Assembly (NCBI GenBank): GCA_937952285.1
Contig: CALFZE010000124.1
Location: 36,649-100,648 of the forward strand
DNA length: 64,000 nt
Direction: 5' to 3'
Origin: an uncultured Bacteriovoracaceae bacterium
GTDB taxonomy: Bacteria; Bdellovibrionota; UBA2428
Shown here: piece by piece, positions 13,619 through 47,479 of the stretch
How the letters are laid out: each line of letters begins with the position of its first letter
How positions within the stretch are numbered: position 1 is the stretch's first letter
Made by a program: the position numbers and the translations under genes
Notes under the pieces: model-generated
Databases searched by the model: none
What the model saw: only the letters and a program-made list of their open reading frames with translations
Told to the model about the DNA's origin: nothing

Positions 13619-14452
13619 ATGGGACTTCGCATTAATACGAACCAGATCGCCGTGAACGCTCAACGTAACCTCCGCGGCAACCAAGCCACGCTTCAAGGTT
13701 CTTCCGAGAAGCTCGCTTCGGGTTACCGTATCAACAAGTCGGCCGACGACGCCGCCGGTCTCGCGATCAGCGATAACCTCGGCGGTATGGTCCGCTCGTA
13801 CCAACAAGCGGGTCGTAACGCTCAAGACGGTATCTCCTTCGTTCAGGTCGCCGAAGGCGGCATGGGTGAAGTCGGTAACATGCTCAACCGTCTCCGCGAA
13901 CTCTCGGTCCAAGCCGCTTCCGATACGATCGGCTCGCGTGAACGCGAGTTCCTCGACCGCGAAGCGCAACAGCTCAAACTCGAAGTTGAACGCGTCGCCC
14001 AGTCGACCGAGTTCAACGGCACCAAACTCTTGAACGGTTCGGGCACCAAGCTCGACTTCCAAATCGGCGTGAACAACGACGACTTCCTCGACCGGATCGG
14101 TTACGACCCGTCGCAGACGAACGTTTCCGCGGACGCCCTCGGTATCAGCGGAATCAACCTCGCCGACAAAGCGACGGCGCAAGGTGGTCTTAACAACATC
14201 GATAACGCGATCCTCGTTCTGAACAGCAACCGCGCAACGCTCGGTGCCCTTCAGAACCGCCTGACCTCGACGTACGCGAGCACGGAAATCGCGGTCGAGA
14301 ACTTCAGCGCCGCCAAGAGCCGTATCCGCGACACGGATTTCGCGTCGGTCACGGCTGATATGACCCGCGATATGGTCAAGACCCAAGCCTCGACGGCCGT
14401 CTTGAGCCAAGCGAACTCGTCCACCCAAATGGCCCTCCGCCTCTTGGGCTAA
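13619..14452 (+). CDS. fliC: Flagellin (short, D0/D1-only, 277 aa)
   Basis: MGLRINTNQIAVNAQRNL N-terminus and LSQANSSTQMALRLLG C-terminus. SD AAGGAG. Confidence 0.95.
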   Translation: MGLRINTNQIAVNAQRNLRGNQATLQGSSEKLASGYRINKSADDAAGLAISDNLGGMVRSYQQAGRNAQDGISFVQVAEGGMGEVGNMLNRLRELSVQAASDTIGSREREFLDREAQQLKLEVERVAQSTEFNGTKLLNGSGTKLDFQIGVNNDDFLDRIGYDPSQTNVSADALGISGINLADKATAQGGLNNIDNAILVLNSNRATLGALQNRLTSTYASTEIAVENFSAAKSRIRDTDFASVTADMTRDMVKTQASTAVLSQANSSTQMALRLLG

Positions 14453-15011: not shown

Positions 15012-15845
15012 ATGGGACTTCGTATCAATACTAACCAGATCGCGGTGAACGCTCAGCGCAACTTGCGAAACAACCAAGCCGTTTTGCAAGGCTCTTCCGA
15101 GAAACTCGCTTCGGGTTCCCGGATCAACAAGTCGGCCGACGACGCCGCTGGTCTCGCGATCAGCGACAACCTCGGCGGTATGGTCCGCTCGTACCAACAA
15201 GCGGGTCGTAACGCTCAAGATGGTATCTCTTTCGTGCAAGTCGCCGAAGGCGGCATGGGCGAAATCGGCAACATGTTGAACCGTCTGCGCGAGCTCTCGG
15301 TGCAAGCGTCTTCGGACACGATCGGCAACCGCGAGCGAGAGTTCCTCGATCGCGAAGCGCAACAGCTCAAGCTCGAAATGGAACGCGTCGCCCAGTCGAC
15401 CGAGTTTAACGGCACCAAGCTCCTCTCGGGGCAAGGCACCAAGCTCGACTTCCAAATCGGCGTGAACAACGACGACTTCCTTGACCGGATCTCCTACGAT
15501 CCGTCTCAAACGAACGTCTCGGTTGACGCGCTCGGCATGAGCGGAATCAACTTGTCCGACAAGGCCGCGGCCCAATCGGGTCTCGCCAACATCGACAACG
15601 CGATTCTCGTGTTGAACAGCAACCGCGCGACGCTCGGTGCTCTTCAAAACCGCCTGACCTCGACCTACGCGAGCACGGAAATCGCGGTCGAGAACTTCAG
15701 CGCCGCCAAGAGCCGTATCCGCGACACGGATTTCGCGTCGGTCACGGCTGATATGACCCGCGATATGGTCAAGACCCAAGCCTCGACAGCCGTCTTGAGC
15801 CAAGCCAACCAGTCCACCCAAATGGCTCTCCGCCTCTTGGGCTAA
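15012..15845 (+). CDS. fliC: Flagellin paralog 2 (277 aa), tandem duplicate of 13619..14452
   Basis: Near-identical protein. The last ~200 nt are almost identical at the DNA level while the 5' part carries many synonymous differences. Confidence 0.95.
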   Translation: MGLRINTNQIAVNAQRNLRNNQAVLQGSSEKLASGSRINKSADDAAGLAISDNLGGMVRSYQQAGRNAQDGISFVQVAEGGMGEIGNMLNRLRELSVQASSDTIGNREREFLDREAQQLKLEMERVAQSTEFNGTKLLSGQGTKLDFQIGVNNDDFLDRISYDPSQTNVSVDALGMSGINLSDKAAAQSGLANIDNAILVLNSNRATLGALQNRLTSTYASTEIAVENFSAAKSRIRDTDFASVTADMTRDMVKTQASTAVLSQANQSTQMALRLLG

Positions 15846-16199: not shown

Positions 16200-16226
16200 T
16201 AAAGTTTTGACGCGCGCAGTCGATAT
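16200..16226 (+). promoter_or_regulatory. Sigma-28 promoter candidate TAAAGTTT-N11-GTCGATAT for flagellin 3
   Basis: 8/8 match to the sigma-28 -35 box and 6/8 to the -10 box, about 115 nt upstream of the ATG. Confidence 0.5.
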
Positions 16227-16342
16227 GTGACTCAGAGCGTTAAACGGTGTCCAGCGGAGGCAACGGAACCTTCGAGGGAGACTTGCAACGCCAAATGACG
16301 CAACGCAGCAATAGTGCGGCGTTGCTTAGGGAGGGTTACTCA

Positions 16343-17173
16343 ATGGGTCTTCGTATTCAAACCAACATTGCGAGCGTGAACGCTCAACGCAACCTGCGCC
16401 AAAATAGCGGCGGGGCCGAACGTTCGATGGAACGCCTCGGCAGCGGCTTCCGAATCAACAAATCCATGGACGACGTCGCCGGCCTCGCGATTAGCGAAAC
16501 GATGAAGGGCCAGCTACGGGGTCTCGGACAAGCCGAGCGAAACGCGCAGGACGGTATCTCCTTCGTGCAGGTGGCCGAATCGGGCCTCAACGAAACCTCC
16601 AACTTGCTCAACCGTGTTCGGGAACTCGCAACCCAAGCCGCGTCCGACACCATCGGCGATACGGAACGTGGGTTCGTGAACATTGAAGTCCAACAGCTCG
16701 TGACCGAAATGGATCGGATCGCGACGACGACCGAATACTCCGGTTCTCGACTCCTGGATGGCTCGGGCCAAACGCTCGACTTCCACGTCGGCTTCCGAGG
16801 CGACCCCTCGAAAAACGTGATCAGCTACGACGCCGGCGCCGCGAACGCACAAACTTCCGCGCTCGGCGTGGATGGAGTGAGCGTTGCCTCTAAAGATGAC
16901 GCACGGGGTACGCTCGACGTCATCGACCAGGCCATCTCGAAAGTCGCCGCGATGCGAGCCGGCTTCGGTGCGATTCAAAGCCGGATGAGCTCGACGATCA
17001 GCAACATCTCGGTCTACCGAGAAGCTCTCAGTGCCGCGAACTCCCGGATTCGAGATGCCGACATGGCCGAAGAATCCGCGAACCTCGCGAAGGCCAACAT
17101 CTTGCAACAAGCCGGTACCGCGGTCTTGGCGCAAGCCAACAGCGCGAACGCTCTCGCCCTGAAGCTGCTCTAG
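16343..17173 (+). CDS. fliC: Flagellin paralog 3 (divergent, about 276 aa)
   Basis: Start taken at the internal MGLRIQTNIASVNAQRNL with SD GGGAGGG, not at the track ORF start 16247. C-terminus ANSANALALKLL. Confidence 0.9.
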   Translation: MGLRIQTNIASVNAQRNLRQNSGGAERSMERLGSGFRINKSMDDVAGLAISETMKGQLRGLGQAERNAQDGISFVQVAESGLNETSNLLNRVRELATQAASDTIGDTERGFVNIEVQQLVTEMDRIATTTEYSGSRLLDGSGQTLDFHVGFRGDPSKNVISYDAGAANAQTSALGVDGVSVASKDDARGTLDVIDQAISKVAAMRAGFGAIQSRMSSTISNISVYREALSAANSRIRDADMAEESANLAKANILQQAGTAVLAQANSANALALKLL

Positions 17174-17358: not shown

Positions 17359-17949
17359 TCAGAGCGCGAACTGACAGATCTTAAGCGTGCCTCGATCCGA
17401 AAAGGCGACGACCCCGGCGCTGGAATCCATCTCCCGAATTGCGTACAGACTCTCACGCAAACGTCCGGCGGCCTTGGCCGACCCGGCGAGCGCCGGAGGC
17501 GCTTCGCCGCGCGAGTAATACGCATTTTCAAGATCGCTGATCTGACCAACCAACGTATCGACGAGACCCATAAGGCTTTCTTGCCAGTTCTTCTCGGTCC
17601 AACCGTTCGTCAGCGTCATCCCGGCTCCGCAGACCTCTTTGATATCCTGCAAAGTCCGCTCCATGGCGCCTCGCTTGGCGGCGACCAACGCGATGATTTG
17701 GCTTTCGATCGACTCGCCGCCGATGACCTTGTCCGCTTTCTGGATGAGGGCATCCAGGCCGCGGTCGCCGCCCCCCGCGCCGACGTCGCCGGGATTCTTG
17801 TCCGCGCTCAACCTCGCCCGCTTGACCCGTGTCTTCTCCGCCGAAGCCGGAAGACGGGACGGGCCCGCGGAAGCGCTTGCGCAGGCGCCGAGGCCCAGGA
17901 ACGCCCCGAGCACGAGACCCATGGCCGTGATTTTGGATTTTTTCTTCAT
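17359..17949 (-). CDS. Lipoprotein of unknown function (196 aa)
   Basis: Real start at the internal MKKKSKITAMGLVLGAFLGLGAC (lipobox LGAC), with SD AAGGAG. The upstream portion of the 459-aa track ORF is an Arg-rich antisense artefact. The ATGA overlap with the upstream gene indicates coupling. Confidence 0.6.
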   Translation of the reverse strand: MKKKSKITAMGLVLGAFLGLGACASASAGPSRLPASAEKTRVKRARLSADKNPGDVGAGGGDRGLDALIQKADKVIGGESIESQIIALVAAKRGAMERTLQDIKEVCGAGMTLTNGWTEKNWQESLMGLVDTLVGQISDLENAYYSRGEAPPALAGSAKAAGRLRESLYAIREMDSSAGVVAFSDRGTLKICQFAL

Positions 17950-18773
17950 GTTTTCTCCTTTTCTTTCACCGACGCATCGTCGGCGATTCTGAACAACTGA
18001 ATGGAAAGCGCATAAACCTGCTTTGCTTTCGGGTCGTCGAGCGACTCCGCGGTTTCCCGACGAAAGCGACGTATCTTCTCGCGCGCCTTCGTCATTTCCT
18101 TCGGATCGAAGAGGAAGACCGTGCTCGTATGGTCGCGCTCCTCGAAAGCGTCTTGGGCAAGCGAACGTTGCGCCGCCGAAAGAATCTGCGCCTGGTAGTT
18201 CCGTAAGGCCGACGACGGCACGCTGCCGGGAGCGAGCAGTACGTCCGAGGCACGCCACCGGCCGGCCTCGTCCTTCCAGATGAGCTCGAGCCGCTTGAGC
18301 CGCTCCCAGCTTTCCTCCACGACGGAGCGGGCCAACCCGAAGCTCCGCGCCAACTTGCCGAAGTCGAGTCGAAAACCCTCCGAACGCACGAGCTCGCGCA
18401 AGGCGAGGTGCTGCCAGTCCGAGATGATCCGGAACGCGTCGAGCGAAAGACGATGCTGGGAAAGGTGCCGGCGCTGCTCGATGCGCGCGCGGGCCATGGC
18501 TTTCTGCGTCGCGCTTCGCGCGTGTTCGCTGTCGACGAGATCGCAGAAATATTCGCCCTCGCTGCCGACCCAACCCAAGCGACGGGAGATCGCCTCGGCC
18601 TTCGTTCGCGATAAGCCTTCGCGACCGCTCAAGATCGAAGACAGGCGTCCCGGGTGCAGCGCAAGATCGCGCGAGAAAGCCCGCAGCGAATAGCGAGGAT
18701 TCGCCGCCATTCGACCACGCAGCTCTTCGCGCAACCAATCGCGGTAGGACGCGACGGCATCGACTTTGCCCAT
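17946..18773 (-). CDS. HTH-domain protein of unknown function (TIGR02147-like family)
   Basis: 275 aa. The N-terminal region resembles a winged-helix/HTH. Normal amino-acid composition, and it overlaps the downstream lipoprotein start by ATGA. The family name is a tentative recollection. Confidence 0.5.
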   Translation of the reverse strand: MGKVDAVASYRDWLREELRGRMAANPRYSLRAFSRDLALHPGRLSSILSGREGLSRTKAEAISRRLGWVGSEGEYFCDLVDSEHARSATQKAMARARIEQRRHLSQHRLSLDAFRIISDWQHLALRELVRSEGFRLDFGKLARSFGLARSVVEESWERLKRLELIWKDEAGRWRASDVLLAPGSVPSSALRNYQAQILSAAQRSLAQDAFEERDHTSTVFLFDPKEMTKAREKIRRFRRETAESLDDPKAKQVYALSIQLFRIADDASVKEKEKT

Positions 18774-18893: not shown

Positions 18894-19547
18894 ATGAGCC
18901 TCACGCGGAAAACACTGCTCCTTGGCGCCGTTCTTTCGTCCTCGGCCTACGCCCAAGACTATCCCTACGACGACGAACCCTCGGGTGAAGCCCCCCTTCC
19001 GCCGGAGGGACCGACGGAAACGCCGACGCCCGCCCCCGCGCTGCCCACCGAAGGCCCCGGTCGCGCGTCGCCCAAACGCACCCGTCAGCCCTCGCTCTTT
19101 CGCGTCGCCCTCAAGGCGGGCGCAAACTTCGCCGTCCTCAGCAGCGCCGCCGCGGGAAGCCATTCGGGCATGGGCATCGAAGGCGTCGTCGCGATGGGGT
19201 GGGATCTCGCATACCAGCCGATATTCCTGGAGCTCGAGTTCGGGTACCGCAGCCACTTCATGGGCGACGACCCGCTCCACATCGTTCCGATCCGCTTCGG
19301 AACCTTCTACCGAAAACGGATGGCGCGGACCCGACTCTGGAAGCCGGGAGTCGCGGTTTCCTTCGACGCGCGCATGGAAGCTTCGGCGAACGGATCCGGC
19401 TCGGATCTGAACTTCCTGCCCGCGCTTCATCTGAGCAACCAATTCGAGTTCGGTAACTTCCTCGCGGAACCCGTCGTGAGTCTCTACCGTCTCGGCTCGA
19501 CGGGTAACTCGATCGCGGCCGCGTTCCGGCTCGGTTACCGTTACTGA
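18894..19547 (+). CDS. Outer-membrane beta-barrel protein (OmpA-like beta-barrel / OMP_b-brl family)
   Basis: Signal peptide LLLGAVLSSSAYAQ, Pro-rich linker, alternating-hydrophobic strands, C-terminal FRLGYRY aromatic end. Confidence 0.65.
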   Translation: MSLTRKTLLLGAVLSSSAYAQDYPYDDEPSGEAPLPPEGPTETPTPAPALPTEGPGRASPKRTRQPSLFRVALKAGANFAVLSSAAAGSHSGMGIEGVVAMGWDLAYQPIFLELEFGYRSHFMGDDPLHIVPIRFGTFYRKRMARTRLWKPGVAVSFDARMEASANGSGSDLNFLPALHLSNQFEFGNFLAEPVVSLYRLGSTGNSIAAAFRLGYRY

Positions 19548-19584: not shown

Positions 19585-22551
19585 GTGCGGGGCGACTATA
19601 TTCGCCCGATGCCGTCGACATTCCTCCCGCGTTACCTCTTCCGAATTTTCCTCGGCGCGGGCGGGGGCTTCTTCGTGCCGACGGCCGCCGCCATCACCTC
19701 GGGCAGCGAATCGGTCGACGCCATTTCGGGAGGAAGCTACCGCACCTTTCGACTCCCTTCGCATCACTTGCATTTCGACGTCGAGCTCGAGCGCCTCGCC
19801 CGGTCGCTCGCGCCCCGCTTCGAGAACTACCTCGACGGGCTCCAGTCGAGGCTGAAGTTCCGTTTGAAGCGGCCGATGCCCGTCTTCTTGGTGAAACGCG
19901 GATTCGGCAACGCCTTCGTCACGTTTCCTTCGGCGGCCTCGCCTTCTTTCTCGGTCCTTTCGCCTCGGCTCACGGCGGCCGAGCTCGGCTCGCCCACTTT
20001 CCTCTACGCCGGCGACGACGAAGGCGTTTTCGACACTTTCCGACACGAAGCCATGCATTACGTGGAAGAAGACCAGCGACGGAGCTTCTGGTCCGCGCTC
20101 ATGGGCGACGCGCCTTACTCCCTCCCTTCGGGTACGGCTTGGGCCGCCGAAGCCTGGGCGGTCGTCCACGAGAAGCCCTCGAACCCCTACTCCGGACGCA
20201 TGAAAGAATCCTACTTCGGAGCGCTCATGCGCGCGAACGTGTCCGGACGCGCGACGCCCGCCCCGACCGAGTGGGACCTCAGCGCGAACAATCCGGATTG
20301 GCGACTGCTCGGCAGCCACTACGTCGTGGGCTCGAACTTCTTCGCCTTCCTGGCGCGCACGCACGGCCTCGCGAAAGTGGACGATTTTATGATCCACCGA
20401 AACGGCTTCTCGGCGAGCTCCGCCTACGAAAAAAGCTTCGGCAAAGACTTCGAGGCGCTTTACGGAGAGTTCCGACGCGAAACCGCCGACGAAGTCCGTC
20501 GTCAAAGCGCCTCGGGGGCGGCCGTCGTTTTTGACGACGACATCGGGCGCATCAACGCGTTAGGTACCACCCTGAACGGCGAAAAAATCTTCGTCGGAAG
20601 CTCGCTCGACCGAACGCCGCGCCTCTACCGGGTTTCGGCCGACGGCAAACGCGACTTGGGCTCCGCCGCGCTCTTCGAATGGATCGCTCCGTTGGGCGGT
20701 CGCCTCGCCTTCGCCCCTTGGCAATGGTCCGAGGCCCGCGTCCCGGGCGCGCTGGATTTCTTTTCGGCGGAAAGCAACGCCGAGGGCAACGAAAGCCGGC
20801 CCGGCCTCTATCGCTACCATCTCGAAGCGGGAACGCGTCGTAGGCTCCGCGGCCTGCCCCTCGCGCGTGCCGCCGTCTCGCGTGGCGACCGGGCGGGATA
20901 CTACGCTCTCGTTCAGTCGGACCCGAACGAGAATCGCTTCCGCCTGGAAGAAGGCCCCCTCGACGAAGACGGCCCGACCCGCGTGCTTTCCGAGTGGTCG
21001 GAGTTCTCCAGCGTTTCGCAGCTGCGCCAGCACCCGGAGTCCGGCGCGCTCTACTTCGCCGCCATCCGACCGGAAGGCAGTTGGGGAATCTACCGGATCG
21101 ACGCGAATCCGAACGCGACGCCGCAGCCGCTCGTCGACACGCGAGGCCAGGATCTCTTTCCGCTCGTCGATCGGGCGGGCAACGTCTTCTTTCTTTCCGA
21201 CCTGAACGGACGGAGTTTTCAGGTCTACCGCTTGGACGGCGAACGGGTTTGCCGTCTGAGCGACGAGCCGTTCTTCGTGTCGAGCTTCGGATGGGGCGCG
21301 AACGAGCGCGAGCTCTTGGCCGTGAGCCGCCGAGGCCCGAGCGAAGTCCTCGTCTCGCTTTCGACCGAAGCGCGGAACTGCGTTTCCATGGCCGAGGTCG
21401 CGGCCGCGTCGACGAGTGTTCCCTCCTTCCGGAGCACCACGGTCGCGGCGACCGAAGAATCCGCTTGGCAAGGGCTTTGGCCGGCGACCCGCGCCCTGCT
21501 CCCCCGCTACACCCGCAGCGGCGACTTCGGAGTCCAGGCGCTCCTGTCCGGCGAGTCTCCCTACAAAGACTGGTCTTGGACTCTGCTCGGCGACTGGGAA
21601 GCCACCGACGAGAACACCCATATTCTCGGGGGAACGATCGGATGGCACGCTTTCTTTCCCGTCGTTTCGCGCCTCCGGGTCGAAGCGAGCCCGCTCGCGC
21701 TCGGCTACGCGTTCGTGCCCGACGCGCGCTTCTTGAACGCGAGCCTCGAGTTGCAGCGCGAACTCGGCCATCATCTTTTCCGGGGCCGCGCGGTCGCGAC
21801 GACCCAAACGGACGATGCCGCTTCGGATCCCGACCCCTACGGGTCGGCCACGGAGATCGGCGTGGCCCACTCCTTCTCGAACACCCAGCAGTCCGCGCTG
21901 GCCGCGGCTCCCCAAAGGGGTTGGTCGCTTTCGACGGCGTTCGAGGTCAATCCGAGTTACTTCGGCCAGGCGTCCACGCGAGCCGTCCTTTCGGCCCGAC
22001 AAACTTTTCATCTGCCGATCGAATCGTTCGCGCGCAATCACTCCCTGAGCCTGAGCCTCTCCGAGACGAAAGCGTTCAACGGTCTCCTGCGGGTTCAAGG
22101 TATCGGCGGCGGCAACGGCTTCGACTACGAGATCGAGTCCGCCGTCGCGCAGGGCTACGGTTTCGGCCGTCTCGTGGGCGCCGGAGAAACCCTTTTCGCC
22201 TATCCCGATTTCCGCATGACGGCCAATCTCATCTTGAGGGGGACGCTCGCCTACGTCATCCCGTTGAACTTCCTGCGAAGCGGCCTCTCGCAAGTCGCGG
22301 GAAGGCGCTGGCTCAACCCCGAGACCTCCGCGATGAACGTCTCGTTTTTCTACGACACGACCGTCGCCCGGGACGGTGACATCGACGTTACGGAGCAGCG
22401 GGGCAGCGTCGGCATCCGAAGCGACTGGTCTCTCTGGTTGAACGAGAACCAAAGCACGGGGATCTCGGCCAGCTACATCGGCGCTTTCGAGCTTCAGGAC
22501 GAACGCGCCCTGCGCCACACTTTCGCGACGAGCGCACGGATCTACTACTGA
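19585..22551 (+). CDS. Large secreted multi-domain protein: HExxH metallopeptidase-like N-region, TolB-like beta-propeller, C-terminal beta-barrel-like domain
   Basis: HEAMHYVEE motif. PD40-like repeats (RLYRVSADGKRDL, ALYFAAIRPEGSWGIYRID, FFLSDLNGRSFQVYRLDG). C-terminal RIYY. 988 aa, 37 nt downstream of the OMP gene. Confidence 0.55.
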   Translation: MRGDYIRPMPSTFLPRYLFRIFLGAGGGFFVPTAAAITSGSESVDAISGGSYRTFRLPSHHLHFDVELERLARSLAPRFENYLDGLQSRLKFRLKRPMPVFLVKRGFGNAFVTFPSAASPSFSVLSPRLTAAELGSPTFLYAGDDEGVFDTFRHEAMHYVEEDQRRSFWSALMGDAPYSLPSGTAWAAEAWAVVHEKPSNPYSGRMKESYFGALMRANVSGRATPAPTEWDLSANNPDWRLLGSHYVVGSNFFAFLARTHGLAKVDDFMIHRNGFSASSAYEKSFGKDFEALYGEFRRETADEVRRQSASGAAVVFDDDIGRINALGTTLNGEKIFVGSSLDRTPRLYRVSADGKRDLGSAALFEWIAPLGGRLAFAPWQWSEARVPGALDFFSAESNAEGNESRPGLYRYHLEAGTRRRLRGLPLARAAVSRGDRAGYYALVQSDPNENRFRLEEGPLDEDGPTRVLSEWSEFSSVSQLRQHPESGALYFAAIRPEGSWGIYRIDANPNATPQPLVDTRGQDLFPLVDRAGNVFFLSDLNGRSFQVYRLDGERVCRLSDEPFFVSSFGWGANERELLAVSRRGPSEVLVSLSTEARNCVSMAEVAAASTSVPSFRSTTVAATEESAWQGLWPATRALLPRYTRSGDFGVQALLSGESPYKDWSWTLLGDWEATDENTHILGGTIGWHAFFPVVSRLRVEASPLALGYAFVPDARFLNASLELQRELGHHLFRGRAVATTQTDDAASDPDPYGSATEIGVAHSFSNTQQSALAAAPQRGWSLSTAFEVNPSYFGQASTRAVLSARQTFHLPIESFARNHSLSLSLSETKAFNGLLRVQGIGGGNGFDYEIESAVAQGYGFGRLVGAGETLFAYPDFRMTANLILRGTLAYVIPLNFLRSGLSQVAGRRWLNPETSAMNVSFFYDTTVARDGDIDVTEQRGSVGIRSDWSLWLNENQSTGISASYIGAFELQDERALRHTFATSARIYY

Positions 22552-22553
22552 CC

Positions 22554-22976
22554 CTAGACCGGGCGCATGACTTTGGCGCCCATCTTCCGTTCGCGGTCGA
22601 TGAGTTCCAGAAGCCGGCCCACGGTCACCCGAAAGCGATTGGGGGTGTAGGGCCGCTGCAGCACGGCGAGGGCGCCCAACGAAAGCGCGCGATTTTCGAC
22701 CTCGTTCGCCATCATTCCCTGGTATCGGTGCGAAAGCACGACGCGCGCCGCGGGCTCGAGCTCCTTCAACTTCGTCAGACAGTAAAGTCCGTCGCGTTTT
22801 GGCAGCTGCAGTTCGACGAAGACGAAGTCGGGCCTCAACTTCTGCCAGGCGCTCATCCATCCCGAACCCGCCCGGGCCCACTCCACGACCTGGATGCCAT
22901 TCGCTTCCAGATTCGCGCGGAGTTCGGAGGCGTTTTCCTCGTAGTAATCCACGATCATAGCCGTGCAGGTCGCCAT
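22554..22976 (-). CDS. Atypical single-domain response-regulator receiver (pseudo-receiver: D13Y, D57E, K109R by CheY numbering)
   Basis: Aligns to CheY: MIVDYYEEN (beta1), FVFVELQLPKRDG (beta3, Asp57 replaced by Glu), VLSH (beta4), VLQRPY (beta5). Start taken at MATCTAM. Confidence 0.6.
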   Translation of the reverse strand: MATCTAMIVDYYEENASELRANLEANGIQVVEWARAGSGWMSAWQKLRPDFVFVELQLPKRDGLYCLTKLKELEPAARVVLSHRYQGMMANEVENRALSLGALAVLQRPYTPNRFRVTVGRLLELIDRERKMGAKVMRPV

Positions 22977-22998
22977 GGACTCAGTGTAACATGCTCCC

Positions 22999-24693
22999 GT
23001 GCCTTCACCCCGCTTCTTCGCGCGCGCGTCGGTCTTCAAGCTGCTCCCGGCCCTCTTGGTCGGGCTGATCCCGTTCGACCTCCTTGACCAGGCTCTGCTC
23101 TCCCGCCTCTACCGCATTCGAGGCGAACGACCGGGCCCGGCGGCCATCAAAGTCGTGCTCGTTCGCGACCCCGAGGAGATGTCGGATTTCCTGCGCGTCG
23201 TGCGGCCGCTCACGGATCTGCCCTGCATCAACTTGAGCCGGTGGAATCCGGGCGAACGTTCCTGTCTCTTTTTGCCGGTCGAGGAGATCTCGCGCCCTCG
23301 GGAGATCTTCACGTTCGCGCCCAGCCTCGCGCGCTTTCTGGGGCGGGAAGTCCCGCCTCCCTTCCACGCCGACGGCGGGATTCAACCGCTCTACTACGGG
23401 AACATTGCCGTCTTCCGGCCCCTGACCGTCCCGGAAGCCATCGCTTCGGTCAAATCGCTCTTCGGTCCCGGCGACATCCTGGTCTTCGCGCCGACGAGTC
23501 CCGTCCCCACGATCCCCGCCGAAACGCCGGCCGGAAGCCTGAACCAAGTCGAGATCGCCTTGAACATGGTGGGCAACGCTTTCGAAGAGCGCTCCCTCGC
23601 TTCGACGTCGCGCACCCTCCAGGTCATGCACTCGGCCGCGGCCTCGGCGCTCGTCGCCTGGATCCTGTACTCCTATCCGATCGTCCTGACGGCGGTGCTC
23701 ACCCTCTTGCTCGGCCTGGTCCAGCTCATCCTCGCGCTCGTCGTCTTCGATACGCTCGACGTCCAACTGCTCGCCGTCGCGCCGCTCGTGGCGATGCTCA
23801 CGGCCTACCTCCTCGGCCTGAGCGATCGGCTCAACAGCCGTGAACGCGAAGCCTGGTCCCTGGAACAGCGATCCGAGAGCCTGCGCGAGCTCGACGAGAT
23901 GAAATCCAATTTTCTCTCCCTCATTTCCCACGACCTCAAGACGCCCATCGCCAAGATGCAGGCCATGCTCGAACGCATGGCCCACGGCGAACTCGGGTCG
24001 CTCACCCCGACGCAGAACGAAACGCTCTCCCGCATCCTCTCGGCGAACGGGCACCTCCAACGAACGATCTCGACGCTGCTGCTGCTCAACCGCATCGAGA
24101 CGGGCCAGTTTCAGATCCGGCGGGAACCCACCGACCTTCTCGAGCTGATCGACGAAACCACGAAGGCGCACCAAGGTCCCGCGCAGGATCGCAACATCCG
24201 CATCGAGAAGGAGCTCGAGCCGCTCTTCCTGGCCGAGGTCGATCGCGGCCTCATCCGCGAAGTCATCAACAACCTCCTGGACAACGCGCTGAAGTACTCG
24301 CCCGCCGCCTCCGTCATTTCGGTCCGCTGCGGAGAGCTCGACAACTCGCCCGACCTTTCCCCGCCGCAACCGGCCATCTGGATCGAGATCCAAGACCGCG
24401 GCACGGGTATCCCGCCGCAGGACCGCGAACGCGTCCGGCAGAAGTTCGTGCGGGGCTCGAACGAAAACACGGCCGCGGACCAATCCGTCAAAGGCACCGG
24501 CCTCGGACTCTTCCTGAGCGGCTTCTTCGTCGAGAAACACGCGGGCCACATGCGCATCGTCTCGCGGACGCGCGGAGAGCCCTACGACCCGGGCTCGCCG
24601 GCCGCCCAGTACTTCGCCGAGGACGAGTCCGGTACCGTGGTGCGGATCAGCCTTCCCGTCGACGAAAGCTTCCTGACGCCCGAAGCCACGTAA
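22999..24693 (+). CDS. Sensor histidine kinase with N-terminal extracytoplasmic sensor domain and multi-TM region
   Basis: H-box SLISHDLKTPIAKM. HATPase_c N, G1 and G2 boxes (NNLLDNALKYS, DRGTGIP, GTGLGL). 564 aa. Confidence 0.8.
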   Translation: MPSPRFFARASVFKLLPALLVGLIPFDLLDQALLSRLYRIRGERPGPAAIKVVLVRDPEEMSDFLRVVRPLTDLPCINLSRWNPGERSCLFLPVEEISRPREIFTFAPSLARFLGREVPPPFHADGGIQPLYYGNIAVFRPLTVPEAIASVKSLFGPGDILVFAPTSPVPTIPAETPAGSLNQVEIALNMVGNAFEERSLASTSRTLQVMHSAAASALVAWILYSYPIVLTAVLTLLLGLVQLILALVVFDTLDVQLLAVAPLVAMLTAYLLGLSDRLNSREREAWSLEQRSESLRELDEMKSNFLSLISHDLKTPIAKMQAMLERMAHGELGSLTPTQNETLSRILSANGHLQRTISTLLLLNRIETGQFQIRREPTDLLELIDETTKAHQGPAQDRNIRIEKELEPLFLAEVDRGLIREVINNLLDNALKYSPAASVISVRCGELDNSPDLSPPQPAIWIEIQDRGTGIPPQDRERVRQKFVRGSNENTAADQSVKGTGLGLFLSGFFVEKHAGHMRIVSRTRGEPYDPGSPAAQYFAEDESGTVVRISLPVDESFLTPEAT

Positions 24694-24779
24694 AATCCTT
24701 CGGATCCCTGGACCCGATCCACGCCTGAAATTCGAGGAATCCTGACGGCGGACTCGCGAGGTCCTGCTAAGATGAACGC

Positions 24780-26252
24780 ATGAGTTCCGATCCCCTCCGC
24801 ATCCTCATCGCCGACGACGAAGCCGATCTTCGGCTCGGCATCCGCTCGCAACTGACGCCCCGAGGTTTTCAGATCGACGAAGCCGCCGACGGCGAAACGG
24901 CCTGGCAGATGATCCAAGCGAATTCCTACGACCTCGTGCTGCTCGACGTCCGGATGCCGGTCCTCGACGGGTTGACCGTGCTCAAGCGCATCCGCGACGA
25001 TCGCTCGACGACGACCGTCGCCGTCATCACGGCGCACGCGAACCTCAAGGACGCCGTCCAGGCCATCCACGACGGCGCTTTCGACTACATCGAGAAGCCG
25101 CTCAAGCGCGAGCGCCTCGACGAGCTCGTCGACAAGGCCCTCGAGGCACGCAGCCTCATCGCCCAGATCGCTTTCTCCCGCCCGCGCGAAGCCGCGGCCG
25201 CGCCCGAGGCAACGGCGGAGACGAGCCCGGATCCGCGCCAGGACTTCATCGGCCATTCCCACCCGATGCAGCGGATCTTCAAGCTCATCGAGCGCCTCGC
25301 GAACGTGAACACGAGCGTCTTGATCCGCGGCGAGAACGGCACGGGCAAGGAGCTCGTCGCCAAGGCGATCCACTTCAATTCTCCGCGCAAGCATCGCCCC
25401 TTCGTCGCCGTGAACTGCGGCGCGATCCCCGAGGATCTCATGGAGAGCGAGTTCTTCGGGCACGAGAAAGGGGCCTTCACGGGCGCCCACACGCGCAAGA
25501 TCGGGAAGTTCCAGTTCGCCTCGGGCGGGACCCTTTTTCTCGACGAGGTGGGCGACCTGCCGCTGCCCATGCAGGTCAAGCTCCTGCGCGTCCTCCAGGA
25601 ACAGAAGATCACTCCCGTCGGCTCGAACCGCGAAATGAAAGTCGACGTCCGCATCGTCGCCGCGACGAACCGCGACCTCGAAAAGATGATGGAGACGAGT
25701 CGCTTCCGGAATGACCTCTTCTACCGGCTCAACGTCATGCCCGTGTTCCTGCCGCCCCTGCGCGAACGCACGGACGACCTGCCCTACCTCGTTCCCCATT
25801 TCATCCAGAAGTTCAACGCGAAGCACGGCCGCAACGTGCGGGGGATCACGGCCGACGCGCTCGCCAAACTCAAGACCTACGACTGGCCGGGCAACATTCG
25901 CGAGCTCGAGAACGCGATCGAGCACGCCTTCGTCGTGGAAACGGGCGACGAGCTGACCTACGAAAGCTTTCCGGGCCACATCTCCGAAGCGCTGCTCGAC
26001 AAGGAAGAAGGCTGGTCGCTCCCGGGCTCGACCGGTAGCGGCGGCGCGAGCGGCACGATCCGGGCCGAGGTCGCGCTTTCGCTGAACTACCACGAAGACA
26101 AGGAACGCTTCGAACGCGAGTTCATCATCCAGGCCCTGCGCTCGAACGGCGGCCGGATCAACCAGACGTGCGAACATGCGGGCATCCCCAAGAACACGCT
26201 GCTGCGCAAGATGAAGAAGTACGGCATCAACGCCAAGGATTACGAGTCATGA
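24780..26252 (+). CDS. Sigma-54-dependent response regulator (NtrC family: REC + AAA+ + Fis-type HTH)
   Basis: REC with DLVLLDVRMP. GENGTGKELVAKAIH Walker A. GAFTGA motif. ESFPGHIS...LRKMKKYGI C-terminal HTH. Confidence 0.9.
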   Translation: MSSDPLRILIADDEADLRLGIRSQLTPRGFQIDEAADGETAWQMIQANSYDLVLLDVRMPVLDGLTVLKRIRDDRSTTTVAVITAHANLKDAVQAIHDGAFDYIEKPLKRERLDELVDKALEARSLIAQIAFSRPREAAAAPEATAETSPDPRQDFIGHSHPMQRIFKLIERLANVNTSVLIRGENGTGKELVAKAIHFNSPRKHRPFVAVNCGAIPEDLMESEFFGHEKGAFTGAHTRKIGKFQFASGGTLFLDEVGDLPLPMQVKLLRVLQEQKITPVGSNREMKVDVRIVAATNRDLEKMMETSRFRNDLFYRLNVMPVFLPPLRERTDDLPYLVPHFIQKFNAKHGRNVRGITADALAKLKTYDWPGNIRELENAIEHAFVVETGDELTYESFPGHISEALLDKEEGWSLPGSTGSGGASGTIRAEVALSLNYHEDKERFEREFIIQALRSNGGRINQTCEHAGIPKNTLLRKMKKYGINAKDYES

Positions 26253-26683
26253 TCCATCGCTTCTTCTCGAAGTCGGCGCTCCCGCCCCTTTCCCAGCAAC
26301 TCGCCCAAACGCCGATCTCGAAGTTCATGACCCGCAATCCCTACAGCGTGATGAAGACGACGCCGGTCGGGATCGCGATCCAAACGATGTTGACCCATGG
26401 CATCAGCGGCCTTCCCGTCGTCGACGTCTCCCAGGTCTGCATCGGCCTCTACACCGAGCTCGACGCCATGATCCAGGCCGCCAGCCAACCGCTCGACGCG
26501 CCGATCCGCTTTCGAAGCCCGGCGATTTCGGTTCAATCGGACTTCACCTTCAAGGAAGTCCTGCTCGTCATGGCCCGTCGCAAGTTGCGCCGGGTTCCGG
26601 TCGTCGACGACCGCAAGCGCCTCCTCGGCATCGTCGCGCGACGGGACATGCTCAAAGCCTTCATGGACGACGTTCAGCGTTGA
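26249..26683 (+). CDS. CBS-domain pair protein
   Basis: Two CBS motifs. The start ATG overlaps the NtrC-type gene stop (ATGA). Confidence 0.7.
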   Translation: MIHRFFSKSALPPLSQQLAQTPISKFMTRNPYSVMKTTPVGIAIQTMLTHGISGLPVVDVSQVCIGLYTELDAMIQAASQPLDAPIRFRSPAISVQSDFTFKEVLLVMARRKLRRVPVVDDRKRLLGIVARRDMLKAFMDDVQR

Positions 26684-26747: not shown

Positions 26748-27755
26748 ATGTCGAGCGGCAAGAAACGCATCCTTCTCCTTCACACCGGCGGAACCCTCGG
26801 AATGACGCTTTCGGGGCAACCCGACGACAGCGCCCGCTTCGTCGATTCGCTCCGCCAGCACGCGCCGCGGATCTTCGAGATCGCCGATCTCCACGTCGAG
26901 ATTCTCTTCAACAAGGACTCCTCGAACATGGTTCCGGGAGACTGGCTCAAAGTCGCGCGGGCGCTCTCCCAACGCATGAGCGAGTGGGATGGGTTCGTCG
27001 TCACGCACGGCACCGACACGATGGTCTTCACGGCTTCGGCGCTGAGCTACATGCTTCCGTCGCCCTCGAAGCCGATCGTCATGACCGGTTCCCAGCGCCC
27101 GATGGCCGACGCCAAGTCCGACGCCGCCCGCAACCTCATCGCCGCCGTCGAGATCGCGTGCGAGGCCCGCGTGAAGGAAGTCACGATCTTCTTCGACAGC
27201 TACCTGCTCCGCGGAAACCGCGCGAAGAAAGTCTCGATCCCGAGTTTCCAGGCTTTCGAGAGCCCAAACCTTCCGCCCCTCGCGCGCGTCGGCCTTCGCA
27301 CGGACTACGTGCCGGCTCCTTATCCCTCGATCGAGTCGAATCCGGACTTCCGCATCGAAACGCGCGTCGCCGCGCTCGCGCTCTTTCCGGGCATGGACAT
27401 CGAGCTCTTCTACGGTCTCATCGACAAGGGCGTCCGCGGGCTCGTGTTGAAGGCCTTCGGCCCGGGCGATATCCCGCTCGGCGAGCATTCCGTGGTCCAC
27501 CTCATCCGCGCGCTCACGGAGAAGGGTATTCCCACCGTCATTTGCTCACAGGCGCTCTTCGGCGCCGTCGACCTGAACCTCTACGAAACGGGACGCGCGG
27601 CCGCGACCGCGGGCGCGATTTCGGCGGGCGACATGACCTGGGAAGCCGCGCTCGTGAAGATGATGGTCCTGCTCGGACGCGGCTACCCGCTCGGCGCTTT
27701 CCGCGCCGCCTTCCGCAAGAACCTCGCGGGCGAACTGACCGAGGAGTTGATGTGA
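26748..27755 (+). CDS. ansA: L-asparaginase (type I family)
   Basis: HTGGTLGM and HGTDTM motifs. Confidence 0.8.
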   Translation: MSSGKKRILLLHTGGTLGMTLSGQPDDSARFVDSLRQHAPRIFEIADLHVEILFNKDSSNMVPGDWLKVARALSQRMSEWDGFVVTHGTDTMVFTASALSYMLPSPSKPIVMTGSQRPMADAKSDAARNLIAAVEIACEARVKEVTIFFDSYLLRGNRAKKVSIPSFQAFESPNLPPLARVGLRTDYVPAPYPSIESNPDFRIETRVAALALFPGMDIELFYGLIDKGVRGLVLKAFGPGDIPLGEHSVVHLIRALTEKGIPTVICSQALFGAVDLNLYETGRAAATAGAISAGDMTWEAALVKMMVLLGRGYPLGAFRAAFRKNLAGELTEELM

Positions 27756-28600
27756 TGGAATTGTCCGAACGTCTCAAGGCGCTTTGCGATATCGTCGAGT
27801 CCGCCACGCCCTTGCTGCTCGAAGGCTACGCGCGCGTGCCGGGTGCGGATCCGCTGCGTCGTGAGCACCTCGGAATCCAAACCAAGAAATCCGTGAAGGA
27901 TCTCGTCACGGTCTTCGACCAACGGGTCGAAGCCTTCCTCACGGCCGAGCTCGCGCGCCGCTTTCCGGGCGAAGCGATCGTCGGCGAGGAAGCCGTGGCG
28001 GCGTCGGGTCGCTCCGTGCGCGAAACCTGCGAACAACACGACGCCTTCTGGATCATCGATCCGATCGACGGCACGACGAACTATTCGCGCGCCTACCCCT
28101 TCTTCTGTTCGACCGTGGCTTACATCGAAAAGATCAACGGACGTTACCGTCCCGTCGTCGGTCTCGTCTGGAATCCGGTGACCCGCGAAATGTTCTCGGC
28201 GGCCTTGGGCCAAGGGGCCTGGCTGAACCGTGAACGCCTCAAAGTGACGCAGGTCGTCGAGCCCCACCAAGCCCTTTTAACAACCGGATTTGCTTCGGAA
28301 AGAGCGTCGAGCGGGAACCGCGCATTTGATCTCTTCCGCGACCTGACAAAGATGACCTTGGGTGTTAGACGGGATGGATCTGCGGCTTTGGACCTGGCGT
28401 ATGTTGCGGCGGGTCGAATTGACGCATACTGGGAATGGGGTCTCTCGCCCTGGGACACGGCCGCGGGTTTGCTTCTCGTCGAAGAAGCCGGCGGTAAGGT
28501 GACCCACCATGACGGCGGCGAAATCGACCTTATGACCGGAGAGATCGTAGCATCGAACGGCTCCATCCACGGATGGCTCGTTCAGGAGGTTGGAAAGTGA
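27755..28600 (+). CDS. suhB: Inositol monophosphatase family protein (SuhB/ImpA-like)
   Basis: WIIDPIDGTTNY and WDTAAG motifs. The start overlaps the asparaginase stop. Confidence 0.8.
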   Translation: MELSERLKALCDIVESATPLLLEGYARVPGADPLRREHLGIQTKKSVKDLVTVFDQRVEAFLTAELARRFPGEAIVGEEAVAASGRSVRETCEQHDAFWIIDPIDGTTNYSRAYPFFCSTVAYIEKINGRYRPVVGLVWNPVTREMFSAALGQGAWLNRERLKVTQVVEPHQALLTTGFASERASSGNRAFDLFRDLTKMTLGVRRDGSAALDLAYVAAGRIDAYWEWGLSPWDTAAGLLLVEEAGGKVTHHDGGEIDLMTGEIVASNGSIHGWLVQEVGK

Positions 28601-46432: not shown

Positions 46433-46537
46433 AGTCCGGATTCCTCCGCGAGTTTCCGGAACGCCGGACGACGCCCGCGCCGACTAAATAAATAATAGCG
46501 ACTTAGGTCTGGCACGTCGGTTGCTTCGCCGTGCGGC

Positions 46538-47479
46538 ATGAAGAGCCCACTCGCTACCCCTTCATCCCCCACCTCGCATTTCTTTCCCCAGGGACTGAGT
46601 CGTTCCCCGACGCCGGCCAAGCCTCCGAAGCCGGTTAGCGTCGCGGTGGAGCATCCGCTCCTCGAAGAGTGGTTCTGGGGACTCGGCCAGGCGCTCGCCG
46701 AACTCCGGGCGGACATCGAGATCGCCGCCTCGAAAGACATCAACATCCTCGTCGTCGGCGAAACGGGGACCGGCAAGGAATACGTCGCCTCGCTGCTCCA
46801 CGAACAGCGTCTCCGTCGAATGCGCCGTCGGCCCTCCGAGTCGACTCCCTTCGTGCCGGTGAACTGCGGCGCGATCCCCGAGAACTTGGCCGAGTCCATG
46901 CTCTTCGGCCACGAGCGCGGGGCCTTCACTTCCGCCCGCGATCGGCGAGCCGGAAAGTTCGAAGTCGCCGGCCAGGGCACGCTCTTCCTCGACGAGATCC
47001 AATGTCTCGACAAGAACCTGCAGGCCAAATTGCTGCGGGTTCTGCAGACGCGCAAGGTCGAGGCGCTCGGCGCGCGCGAGGCCGTCGACATCGACTGCCA
47101 GATCGTCGCGGCGAGCAATATCCCCCTCGAGATTCTCGTGAACAACCAACGCTTTCGACGGGATCTCTACTACCGCTTGAACGTCTTTCCGCTTTACCTG
47201 CCGCCGCTGCGCAAGCGGAAGGAAGACCTGCCGACGATCGTCCGCGGCCTGCTTCGACGCCTCGAGAAGACCCTGGGCTTCACCGGCCTCGAGGTCGAAG
47301 CCTCCGCCTTCGAGCAGATCGTTCGCTACGACTGGCCCGGAAACATCCGCGAGCTCGAGCACGCGCTTCTGTACGCCGCGCTTCGCAGCCGTACGGGAAG
47401 CATCACTTCCGCCCATCTGCCCAGCTTCGTGACGGGTGCCCTTAAAGCTTACTTGAGCGAAGGGGAGTGGGACCTATGA
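46538..47479 (+). CDS. Stand-alone sigma-54 activator AAA+ core (no receiver, no HTH)
   Basis: VVGETGTGKEYVA Walker A, a GAFTSA variant of GAFTGA, and DWPGNIRELE. 313 aa, ends 45 aa after the AAA+ lid with no Fis-type HTH. Confidence 0.75.
   Translation: MKSPLATPSSPTSHFFPQGLSRSPTPAKPPKPVSVAVEHPLLEEWFWGLGQALAELRADIEIAASKDINILVVGETGTGKEYVASLLHEQRLRRMRRRPSESTPFVPVNCGAIPENLAESMLFGHERGAFTSARDRRAGKFEVAGQGTLFLDEIQCLDKNLQAKLLRVLQTRKVEALGAREAVDIDCQIVAASNIPLEILVNNQRFRRDLYYRLNVFPLYLPPLRKRKEDLPTIVRGLLRRLEKTLGFTGLEVEASAFEQIVRYDWPGNIRELEHALLYAALRSRTGSITSAHLPSFVTGALKAYLSEGEWDL

Follow-up and report, generated by a model that had tools for sequence, protein, structure and literature searches.

We analysed a 64,000-nucleotide stretch of DNA from an uncultured Bacteriovoracaceae bacterium (contig CALFZE010000124.1; hereafter the window), in which a gene for a single-domain receiver stands head-to-head with the gene for a membrane histidine kinase, itself followed by genes for an NtrC-type sigma-54 activator (bacterial enhancer-binding protein, bEBP) and a CBS-pair protein. 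The receiver has the fold of its class and keeps just one of the five catalytic residues; among those lost is the aspartate that accepts the phosphoryl group, which is replaced by glutamate. Going by these residues, phosphorylation of the protein on the canonical Asp is impossible. Its relatives form a small family in which the acceptor varies and which also occurs in lineages lacking the kinase at this locus. The reading towards which we lean, with some reserve, is that of a phosphorylation-independent pseudo-receiver acting through protein contacts, for which the kinase–activator pair would be an optional neighbour.

A receiver fold without a canonical phosphorylation site

Both profile score and predicted structure place the protein among receiver domains. 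Pfam Response_reg (PF00072) matched it with 45.9 bits (cut-off 30.2) over positions 2–107 of the 111 in the profile, and AlphaFold2 returned a model of very high confidence (pLDDT 96.3, pTM 0.88) with the (βα)5 fold, its five strands and five helices in order. The top Foldseek matches of this model were CheY, Spo0F and RR468, with TM-scores of 0.85–0.90 when normalised to target length. NCBIfam gave no family at its cut-off for the receiver, the kinase, the activator or the CBS protein.

The open reading frame (ORF) of the receiver spans 22554..23039(-). The gene caller started it at ATG 22958 (134 amino acids, protein P0001); we favour ATG 22976, which gives 140 amino acids, because of the family consensus 'xAMIL' before β1 and the strand that AlphaFold2 predicts at residues 4–9. 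The ORF is intact, and its G+C content at third codon positions (GC3) is 0.80, typical for coding sequence in the window. An identical protein is encoded on contigs of two other JGI samples (L005 and L006) and in NCBI, ENA and Logan assemblies, so the glutamate is not a sequencing error. L005 and L006 represent essentially the same strain as the window, and the gene is nucleotide-identical across these copies, which therefore confirm the sequence and are uninformative on evolutionary retention or selection.

The residue register was established by four treatments: a phmmer search against receivers in the PDB, a MAFFT alignment with CheY, Spo0F and RR468, a profile–profile alignment in hhalign of the receiver family with about 80 ordinary receivers (probability 99.8%), and the secondary structure of the AlphaFold2 model. 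Together they equate D10 with CheY D12, Y11 with D13, E55 with D57, H83 with T87 and R108 with K109. In the phmmer alignments FVFVELQLP pairs with LIVLDIMMP of RR468 and VLQRPYTP with VMRKPFSP, and E55 lies at the C-terminal end of strand β3 in the model. An earlier note on this DNA, made by reading the letters, had described a 140-residue receiver with Asp57 changed to Glu, Asp13 to Tyr and Lys109 to Arg. The same register emerged from phmmer, MAFFT, hhalign and AlphaFold2, and the multiple alignment with canonical receivers that the note had proposed upheld the three substitutions. Its account was correct as far as it went and incomplete, the His at the Thr position having been overlooked.

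Neither the acceptor Asp (D), nor an intact pair of metal-binding acids (DD), nor the conserved Thr/Ser (T) or Lys (K) of a phosphorylatable receiver was found in the window protein: D10, the first acid of the pair (DD1), is kept, and the second (DD2) is Tyr11. His83 occupies the Thr position; Ser82 stands one residue before it, so that an error of one residue in the register is a residual possibility here. Arg108–Pro109 follows β5 in place of Lys–cis-Pro, the residue after the Thr position (T+1) is a bulky Arg, and the switch position three residues before the Lys (K-3) is Val instead of an aromatic residue. Lacking DD2, D, T and K, the protein fits the published definition of a pseudo-receiver (PMC12632262), and Glu55 makes it an aspartate-less receiver as well (PMC4395418). 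The earlier note had allowed that another alignment might supply an acceptor Asp, and none did: on the AlphaFold2 model and the hhalign alignment, D50 was rejected because it sits at the start of β3, and D62 because it is the conserved DG of the β3–α3 loop.

A rare family with an invariant histidine

An exhaustive profile search of 1.84 billion protein representatives revealed about 30 stand-alone relatives of 119–175 amino acids, with E-values of 1e-38 to 1e-21, far above the general receiver background. Word-indexed protein searches with the receiver gave few relatives. A scan of species-representative genomes with a three-sequence alignment matched only an unrelated Acidimicrobiaceae receiver (28% identity), and a metagenome scan with the same alignment found one locus, a duplicate of relative P0003. 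We conclude that the family is rare and lineage-restricted.

In the alignment of 30 representatives from which all family statistics were taken, DD2 is acidic in no member, the Thr position is His in every member, and K-3 is V, I, A or L throughout. The acceptor is Asp in 24 members, Ser in three, Glu in two and Thr in one, its column ranking 22nd of 122 in conservation; the Lys position holds Lys in 21, Arg in six and other residues in three. Judged by these active-site residues, the whole family is a pseudo-receiver family under the definition cited above (PMC12632262), and the window protein is additionally aspartate-less, which the family as a whole is not, given the 24 members with Asp. 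Six positions are invariant (W33, G37, W40, H83, A90 and A97) and seven nearly so (P49, L58, G63, G87, E94, G101 and P109).

Among the sampled members the window receiver has degenerated furthest, with Glu at D, Arg at K, Arg at T+1 and Tyr at DD2, as might be expected if these active-site losses meant that the gene is turning into a pseudogene in this strain. We find such decay hardly credible, because the protein retains all 13 invariant or near-invariant family positions in an intact ORF with the GC3 of coding sequence, and because its predicted fold is very confident. The pseudogene that the earlier note had named as a possible undoing of its proposal is likewise not borne out.

Glutamate as a sporadic change at the acceptor position

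The nearest orthologues of the window receiver, P0002 and P0003 (57% and 53% identity), carry Asp at the acceptor and read LIVIDLQLPKRDG and IVVVDLQLPKRDG. The only other member with Glu is P0015, whose relatives at 90% identity or more carry Asp and read LVFVDLMLPEKDG; thus, within a single cluster at that threshold, P0015 (from locus L016) has Glu, whereas P0160, P0161 and P0162 (L017) have Asp. The Glu of P0015 has one Logan contig of 1.9 kb as its sole source, and an assembly error is possible. Since Asp and Glu differ both within this cluster and between the window and its nearest orthologues, the swap lies at the tips of the tree, and by this comparison Glu55 is a sporadic change and not a family trait. 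Its codon, GAA, is uninformative on how recent the change was, as GAA and GAG are both common (235 vs 283 occurrences). The acceptor Asp is absent from six of the 30 representatives, compared with about 2–4% of bacterial receivers generally (PMC12632262, PMC12548384), and the mixture of residues points to relaxed selection at this site, not to a designed phosphomimic. The earlier note had presented the Glu as the mark of a non-phosphorylatable phosphomimic. The first part stands, as there is no canonical acceptor; the second, taken as a trait, does not, with Asp in 24 of the 30 representatives. The residue before the invariant His co-varies with the acceptor in the P0015 cluster, being Met with Glu and Thr with Asp.

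A different account would have the family still consist of working receivers, with a new site remodelled from the DD1 acid, an acid relocated to the start of α1 and the His that replaces Thr; Glu55 of the window would then be a constitutively 'on' phosphomimic allele. Asp is retained in 24 of the 30 members, Lys or Arg in 27 and an acid at the E14 position in 29, the acceptor is replaced by E, S or T only and not by arbitrary residues, and Asp-to-Glu changes partially activate many receivers (PMC12632262). However, DD2, which is a direct metal ligand, is absent in all members, and no member has retained the T or the K-3 switch residue. The acceptor has, moreover, been lost in 20% of representatives, well beyond the general rate (PMC12632262, PMC12548384), and the window protein also lacks the Lys and carries Arg at T+1. 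We consider a remodelled phospho-site unlikely.

Genomic context of the receiver in other lineages

We compared the context of the receiver gene in eight lineages. In six of them it diverges from a block encoding the kinase, the activator, the CBS protein, a type I asparaginase and an inositol-monophosphatase-family (IMPase) protein, with 4-nt operon overlaps in several. In L017/L018/L019 and L016 it faces CBS–IMPase, without kinase, activator or asparaginase, and in L008/L009 it faces asparaginase–IMPase, without kinase, activator or CBS. The tie between receiver and kinase is therefore not obligatory, contrary to what the pairing described in the earlier note might suggest: L017 and L008 keep the receiver with neither kinase nor activator. 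In this small sample Asp and Lys are both present in the two lineages that lack the cassette, the one exception being P0015 with its Glu. The surroundings fall into three architectures: histidine kinase–activator–CBS–asparaginase, CBS only and asparaginase only.

The IMPase gene accompanies the receiver in all loci of sufficient length, and the order on that side is conserved as IMPase, a 92-amino-acid gene and sometimes LptC. The other flank holds a homologue of a 217-amino-acid ORF followed by flagellins and then, on the contigs that extend so far (L010, L012 and L017), by the dcw cluster; homologues of the 217-residue protein are 33–42% identical in L001, L002, L010, L012 and L014 (tblastn). 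L008 differs on this flank and has no flagellin gene within its 16-kb locus. The window shares the backbone, with three tandem flagellin genes at 13619-14452, 15012-15845 and 16247-17173, all on the plus strand. From this gene order we infer that the receiver belongs to the chromosomal backbone, with the flagellin cluster on one side and the IMPase block on the other, and that kinase and activator form a cassette that may be present or absent. Where a backbone is colinear and a cassette optional, adjacency over a short range is weak evidence of functional coupling.

This bears on the branched pathway suggested in the earlier note, in which the pseudo-receiver would be a dedicated third component, a constitutive adaptor or competitor on the kinase or on the receiver domain of the activator that tunes phosphotransfer. 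The head-to-head layout is found in six of the eight lineages with a spacer of 22–120 nt, although receiver identity there is only 34–57%. There is also a precedent in CmrRST, where binding of the kinase or heterodimerising with the regulator has been proposed (PMC12632262, PMC12548384). Against this, receivers with all family-invariant residues persist in two lineages without kinase and activator at the locus, and because gene order is conserved on both flanks the adjacency may be part of an inherited backbone. In addition, at the α1 sites through which receivers usually dock on the DHp helix of a kinase, the family carries polar or charged residues, which counts weakly against canonical kinase docking as read from the alignment. 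A branched pathway thus seems to us a tentative possibility, one that we would not put first.

The divergent spacer and its putative promoters

With ATG 22976 as the receiver start, 22 nt separate the two divergent genes; the shorter version of the receiver widens the gap to 40 nt, and both values agree with the 20–40 nt given in the earlier note. As the gap is so short, each promoter must lie partly inside the opposite gene, and the two transcription units must overlap. A -10-like hexamer, TACACT, on the minus strand (plus-strand positions 22984-22989) stands 6–7 nt upstream of the receiver ATG; at such a distance the receiver mRNA may be leaderless. A TAnAnT-like hexamer precedes the receiver gene in most orthologous loci. 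The 400 nt on either side of the receiver start codon contained no sigma-54 -24/-12 elements, either in the window or in the other loci scanned, and no sigma-54 sites were seen upstream of the flagellin, activator or asparaginase genes in the window. Matches to TGGCAC-N5-TTGCW in the window were not above chance (10 observed, 14.1 expected). Rfam gave no matches in the 64 kb.

Proposed mode of action

If the protein is a phosphorylation-independent pseudo-receiver, it would signal by protein–protein contact. The likely contact surfaces are the patch formed by W33, G37 and W40 and the β4–α4 block H83..G87..A90..E94..A97..G101. Its activity would probably be set by its abundance, under its own sigma-70-like promoter, and not by phosphotransfer. 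The kinase presumably phosphorylates the activator. Should the receiver modulate this two-component system, by binding the kinase or by pairing with the receiver domain of the activator in the manner put forward for CmrT or WhiI, this would be a secondary function and would not explain why the gene exists.

Several points weigh against this reading. The acceptor Asp is kept in 80% of the family and Lys or Arg in 90%, the DD1 acid is present in 73%, and an acid stands at the start of α1 in 29 of the 30 members; the Asp-bearing members may therefore possess a remodelled working phospho-site, which would make the Glu a meaningful phosphomimic allele. The short spacer with a kinase opposite the receiver in six of eight lineages may reflect functional coupling, and the argument from the α1 docking positions is indirect. 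The sample as a whole is small, with about 30 representatives and eight genomic contexts, and any partner of the receiver, like its expression, is putative.

Helix α5 of the receiver runs to residue 136 and is followed by a basic tail, as seen in the AlphaFold2 model and the alignment. The tail (22554-22600(-)) carries a short motif that recurs in the family, P0157, P0158 and P0011 among them; it reads KVMRP in the window protein, KVKMP in P0158 and RIKLS in P0011, and by its recurrence this could be a linear interaction motif. A single domain with a long α5 and a basic tail whose motif recurs in distant members would also suit a CheY-like regulator of motility that is linked to the flagellin genes nearby and acts on the flagellar switch free of phosphorylation, like the Cle proteins of Caulobacter, which work without phosphorylation and need a C-terminal extension instead (PMC5677366). 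Flagellin genes indeed lie about 0.2–5.5 kb from the receiver in every long-enough locus except L008. However, receiver and flagellin genes are convergent or separated and not co-transcribed, and synteny alone is weak where the whole region is colinear, which leaves a motility role very unlikely in our judgement.

Comparison with known systems

The closest parallel is CmrRST of Clostridioides difficile, in which, as in the window, one locus brings together a kinase, a regulator of canonical type and a receiver of the aspartate-less kind (PMC12548384, PMC12632262). Like the window receiver, CmrT carries Glu in place of the acceptor Asp (E53) and has an impaired DD pair (PMC12548384), and it is thought to be constitutively active, possibly interacting with its canonical partner or with the kinase (PMC12548384, PMC12632262). 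It differs in having an OmpR-type DNA-binding output domain, in belonging to the same operon as its partners and in keeping T and K, whereas the window receiver is stand-alone, divergently transcribed and has His at T and Arg at K, and its family mostly keeps Asp.

The commonest substitutions in pseudo-receivers are Glu at D, Arg at K and a non-acidic DD2, and the usual replacement at the Thr position is Ala (PMC12632262). The window receiver shares these commonest substitutions with aspartate-less and pseudo-receivers at large, and its His at T is unusual among them (PMC4395418, PMC12632262). Most characterised bacterial pseudo-receivers are orphans with output domains, unlike the protein studied here. 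WhiI of Streptomyces venezuelae, an atypical regulator that heterodimerises with the response regulator BldM, illustrates a plausible route to the receiver domain of the activator (PMC12632262); WhiI has a DNA-binding domain, unlike the window receiver, and heterodimerising is carried over to the latter by analogy only. Plant pseudo-response regulators and fungal Rim15p receivers also have Glu for the acceptor Asp and function independently of Asp phosphorylation (PMC12632262), but these proteins are eukaryotic, multidomain and of unrelated biology, and their Glu is fixed, whereas it is sporadic in the family of the window receiver. The Cle proteins of Caulobacter, likened here to the window receiver by description only, are single-domain, CheY-like and phosphorylation-free, with a C-terminal extension (PMC5677366). 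Those tested (CleA and CleD) keep a potential acceptor, Asp67 in CleA, and the Cle proteins belong to the CheY/CheB branch and bind c-di-GMP via an arginine-rich motif (PMC5677366).

Taken singly, a receiver with Glu for Asp beside a two-component system is common, has precedent and should come as no surprise to those in the field. The features that set this case apart are a receiver that stands alone, a His at the Thr position in every family member, an acceptor that is D, E, S or T within one small family, and a kinase cassette that is not always there. The switching of bacterial pseudo-receivers is an acknowledged open problem (PMC12632262), and the locus offers a natural comparison set: the receiver occurs with any of these acceptor residues, and both with and without a kinase–activator pair next to it, and comparing such cases could show if either the acceptor or the kinase has any importance. 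At the speculative end, the roughly 30-member family would be an undescribed class of stand-alone receivers whose rebuilt pocket, with the DD1 acid, the acid moved to the start of α1 and the invariant His and without an aromatic switch residue, senses a non-phosphoryl cue (for instance a metal, pH, redox or a small ligand at the His) and couples it, independently of any kinase, to flagellar or envelope functions of the surrounding genes; the acceptor Asp would then be dispensable and swap freely with Glu, Ser and Thr. We regard this as a long shot.

Neighbouring genes

The genes beside the receiver (Table 1) are much as the earlier note had described them: a multi-membrane-pass kinase of 564 residues with an extracytoplasmic region, a complete REC–AAA+–HTH sigma-54 activator and a translationally coupled CBS-pair protein. 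The kinase shows Pfam HisKA and HATPase_c domains and has the H-box SHDLKTP in its translation, in keeping with the HisKA class. We take GTG 22999 as its start because the L001 orthologue shares a conserved N-terminus with it (SPR..LLPA..VGL.PF.LLD). Hydropathy indicates a first transmembrane (TM) helix at about residues 10–31, followed by about 180 extracytoplasmic amino acids and by a hydrophobic block of 66 residues (212–277), consistent with three TM helices. This sensor region (one TM helix, about 180 residues, about three TM helices) is about 40–50% identical among orthologues. No Pfam family matched its residues 1–293 (22999-23880(+)), even at E≤10. The layout that we take to be typical of CHASE2-type sensors, one TM helix, an extracytoplasmic domain and three TM helices, resembles the kinase topology; CHASE2 was rejected as the sensor, since residues 1–293 gave no match to its profile at E≤10 and the topology alone is similar.

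The activator combines Response_reg (PF00072), Sigma54_activat (PF00158), AAA_lid_14 (PF25601) and HTH_8 (PF02954), and its translation reads a canonical receiver (DD, D, T and K) and the GAFTGA motif, as expected of a bEBP. Its NCBIfam scores were AtoC/NtrC-like and below the equivalog cut-offs, and it is 64–78% identical to its orthologues in six lineages. By their domains and motifs, kinase and activator are a complete canonical two-component system. The ATG of the CBS gene at 26249 overlaps the activator stop (ATGA), and the same 4-nt overlap occurs in orthologous loci. The IMPase assignment comes from PF00459 annotated in orthologous loci, the window copy being assigned by synteny.

Table 1. 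Coordinates of the receiver gene, its active-site codons and the surrounding features in the window
Feature	Position	Strand	Basis or remark
Single-domain pseudo-receiver (aspartate-less subtype), 140 aa	22554..22976	-	Pfam, AlphaFold2, Foldseek
Glu55, codon GAA, phospho-acceptor position (CheY D57)	22812..22814	-	phmmer, MAFFT, hhalign
Tyr11, codon TAC, second metal-binding acid DD2 (CheY D13)	22944..22946	-	MAFFT, hhalign
His83, codon CAC, conserved Thr/Ser position (CheY T87)	22728..22730	-	MAFFT, hhalign, end of AlphaFold2 strand E79-83
Arg108, codon CGG, conserved Lys position (CheY K109)	22653..22655	-	phmmer, MAFFT, hhalign
Divergent intergenic spacer, 22 nt	22977..22998	.	Between receiver ATG and kinase GTG
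Membrane histidine kinase, 564 aa	22999..24693	+	Pfam HisKA PF00512 and HATPase_c PF02518, hydropathy
NtrC-type sigma-54 activator (bEBP), REC-AAA+-HTH_8	24780..26252	+	Pfam
CBS-pair protein, 144 aa	26249..26683	+	Pfam, two CBS stretches
Type I asparaginase	26748..27755	+	Pfam Asparaginase and Asparaginase_C; conserved downstream block by synteny
Inositol-monophosphatase-family (IMPase) gene	27752..28600	+	Overlaps asparaginase end
217-aa protein, no Pfam match	18894..19547	+	Homologue directly convergent with receiver in most relatives

Some features elsewhere in the window were recorded in passing. The third flagellin gene is preceded by a sigma-28-like TAAAG-N15-TCGATA at 16200, and the first two share an upstream block (GGCAGCTGTCAAAGA...). 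A DUF4423 (PF14394) protein is encoded at 17946-18773(-), between the flagellin genes and the receiver region. The only exact TGGCAC-N5-TTGC sigma-54 match in the window, at 46510-46525(+), lies 12 nt upstream of a 313-amino-acid ORF (46538-47479(+)) that corresponds to a sigma-54 AAA+ activator core without receiver or HTH (NCBIfam, residues 46–298 only). An ORF of 988 amino acids with no Pfam or NCBIfam match (19585-22551(+)) is inserted between the 217-amino-acid ORF and the receiver; it occurs in the window and in the same-strain copies L005 and L006 only, and in none of the other loci examined. Its HEAMH (HExxH) motif at residue 154 and its C-terminal end ...ARIYY suggest a metalloprotease-like domain fused to an outer-membrane barrel.

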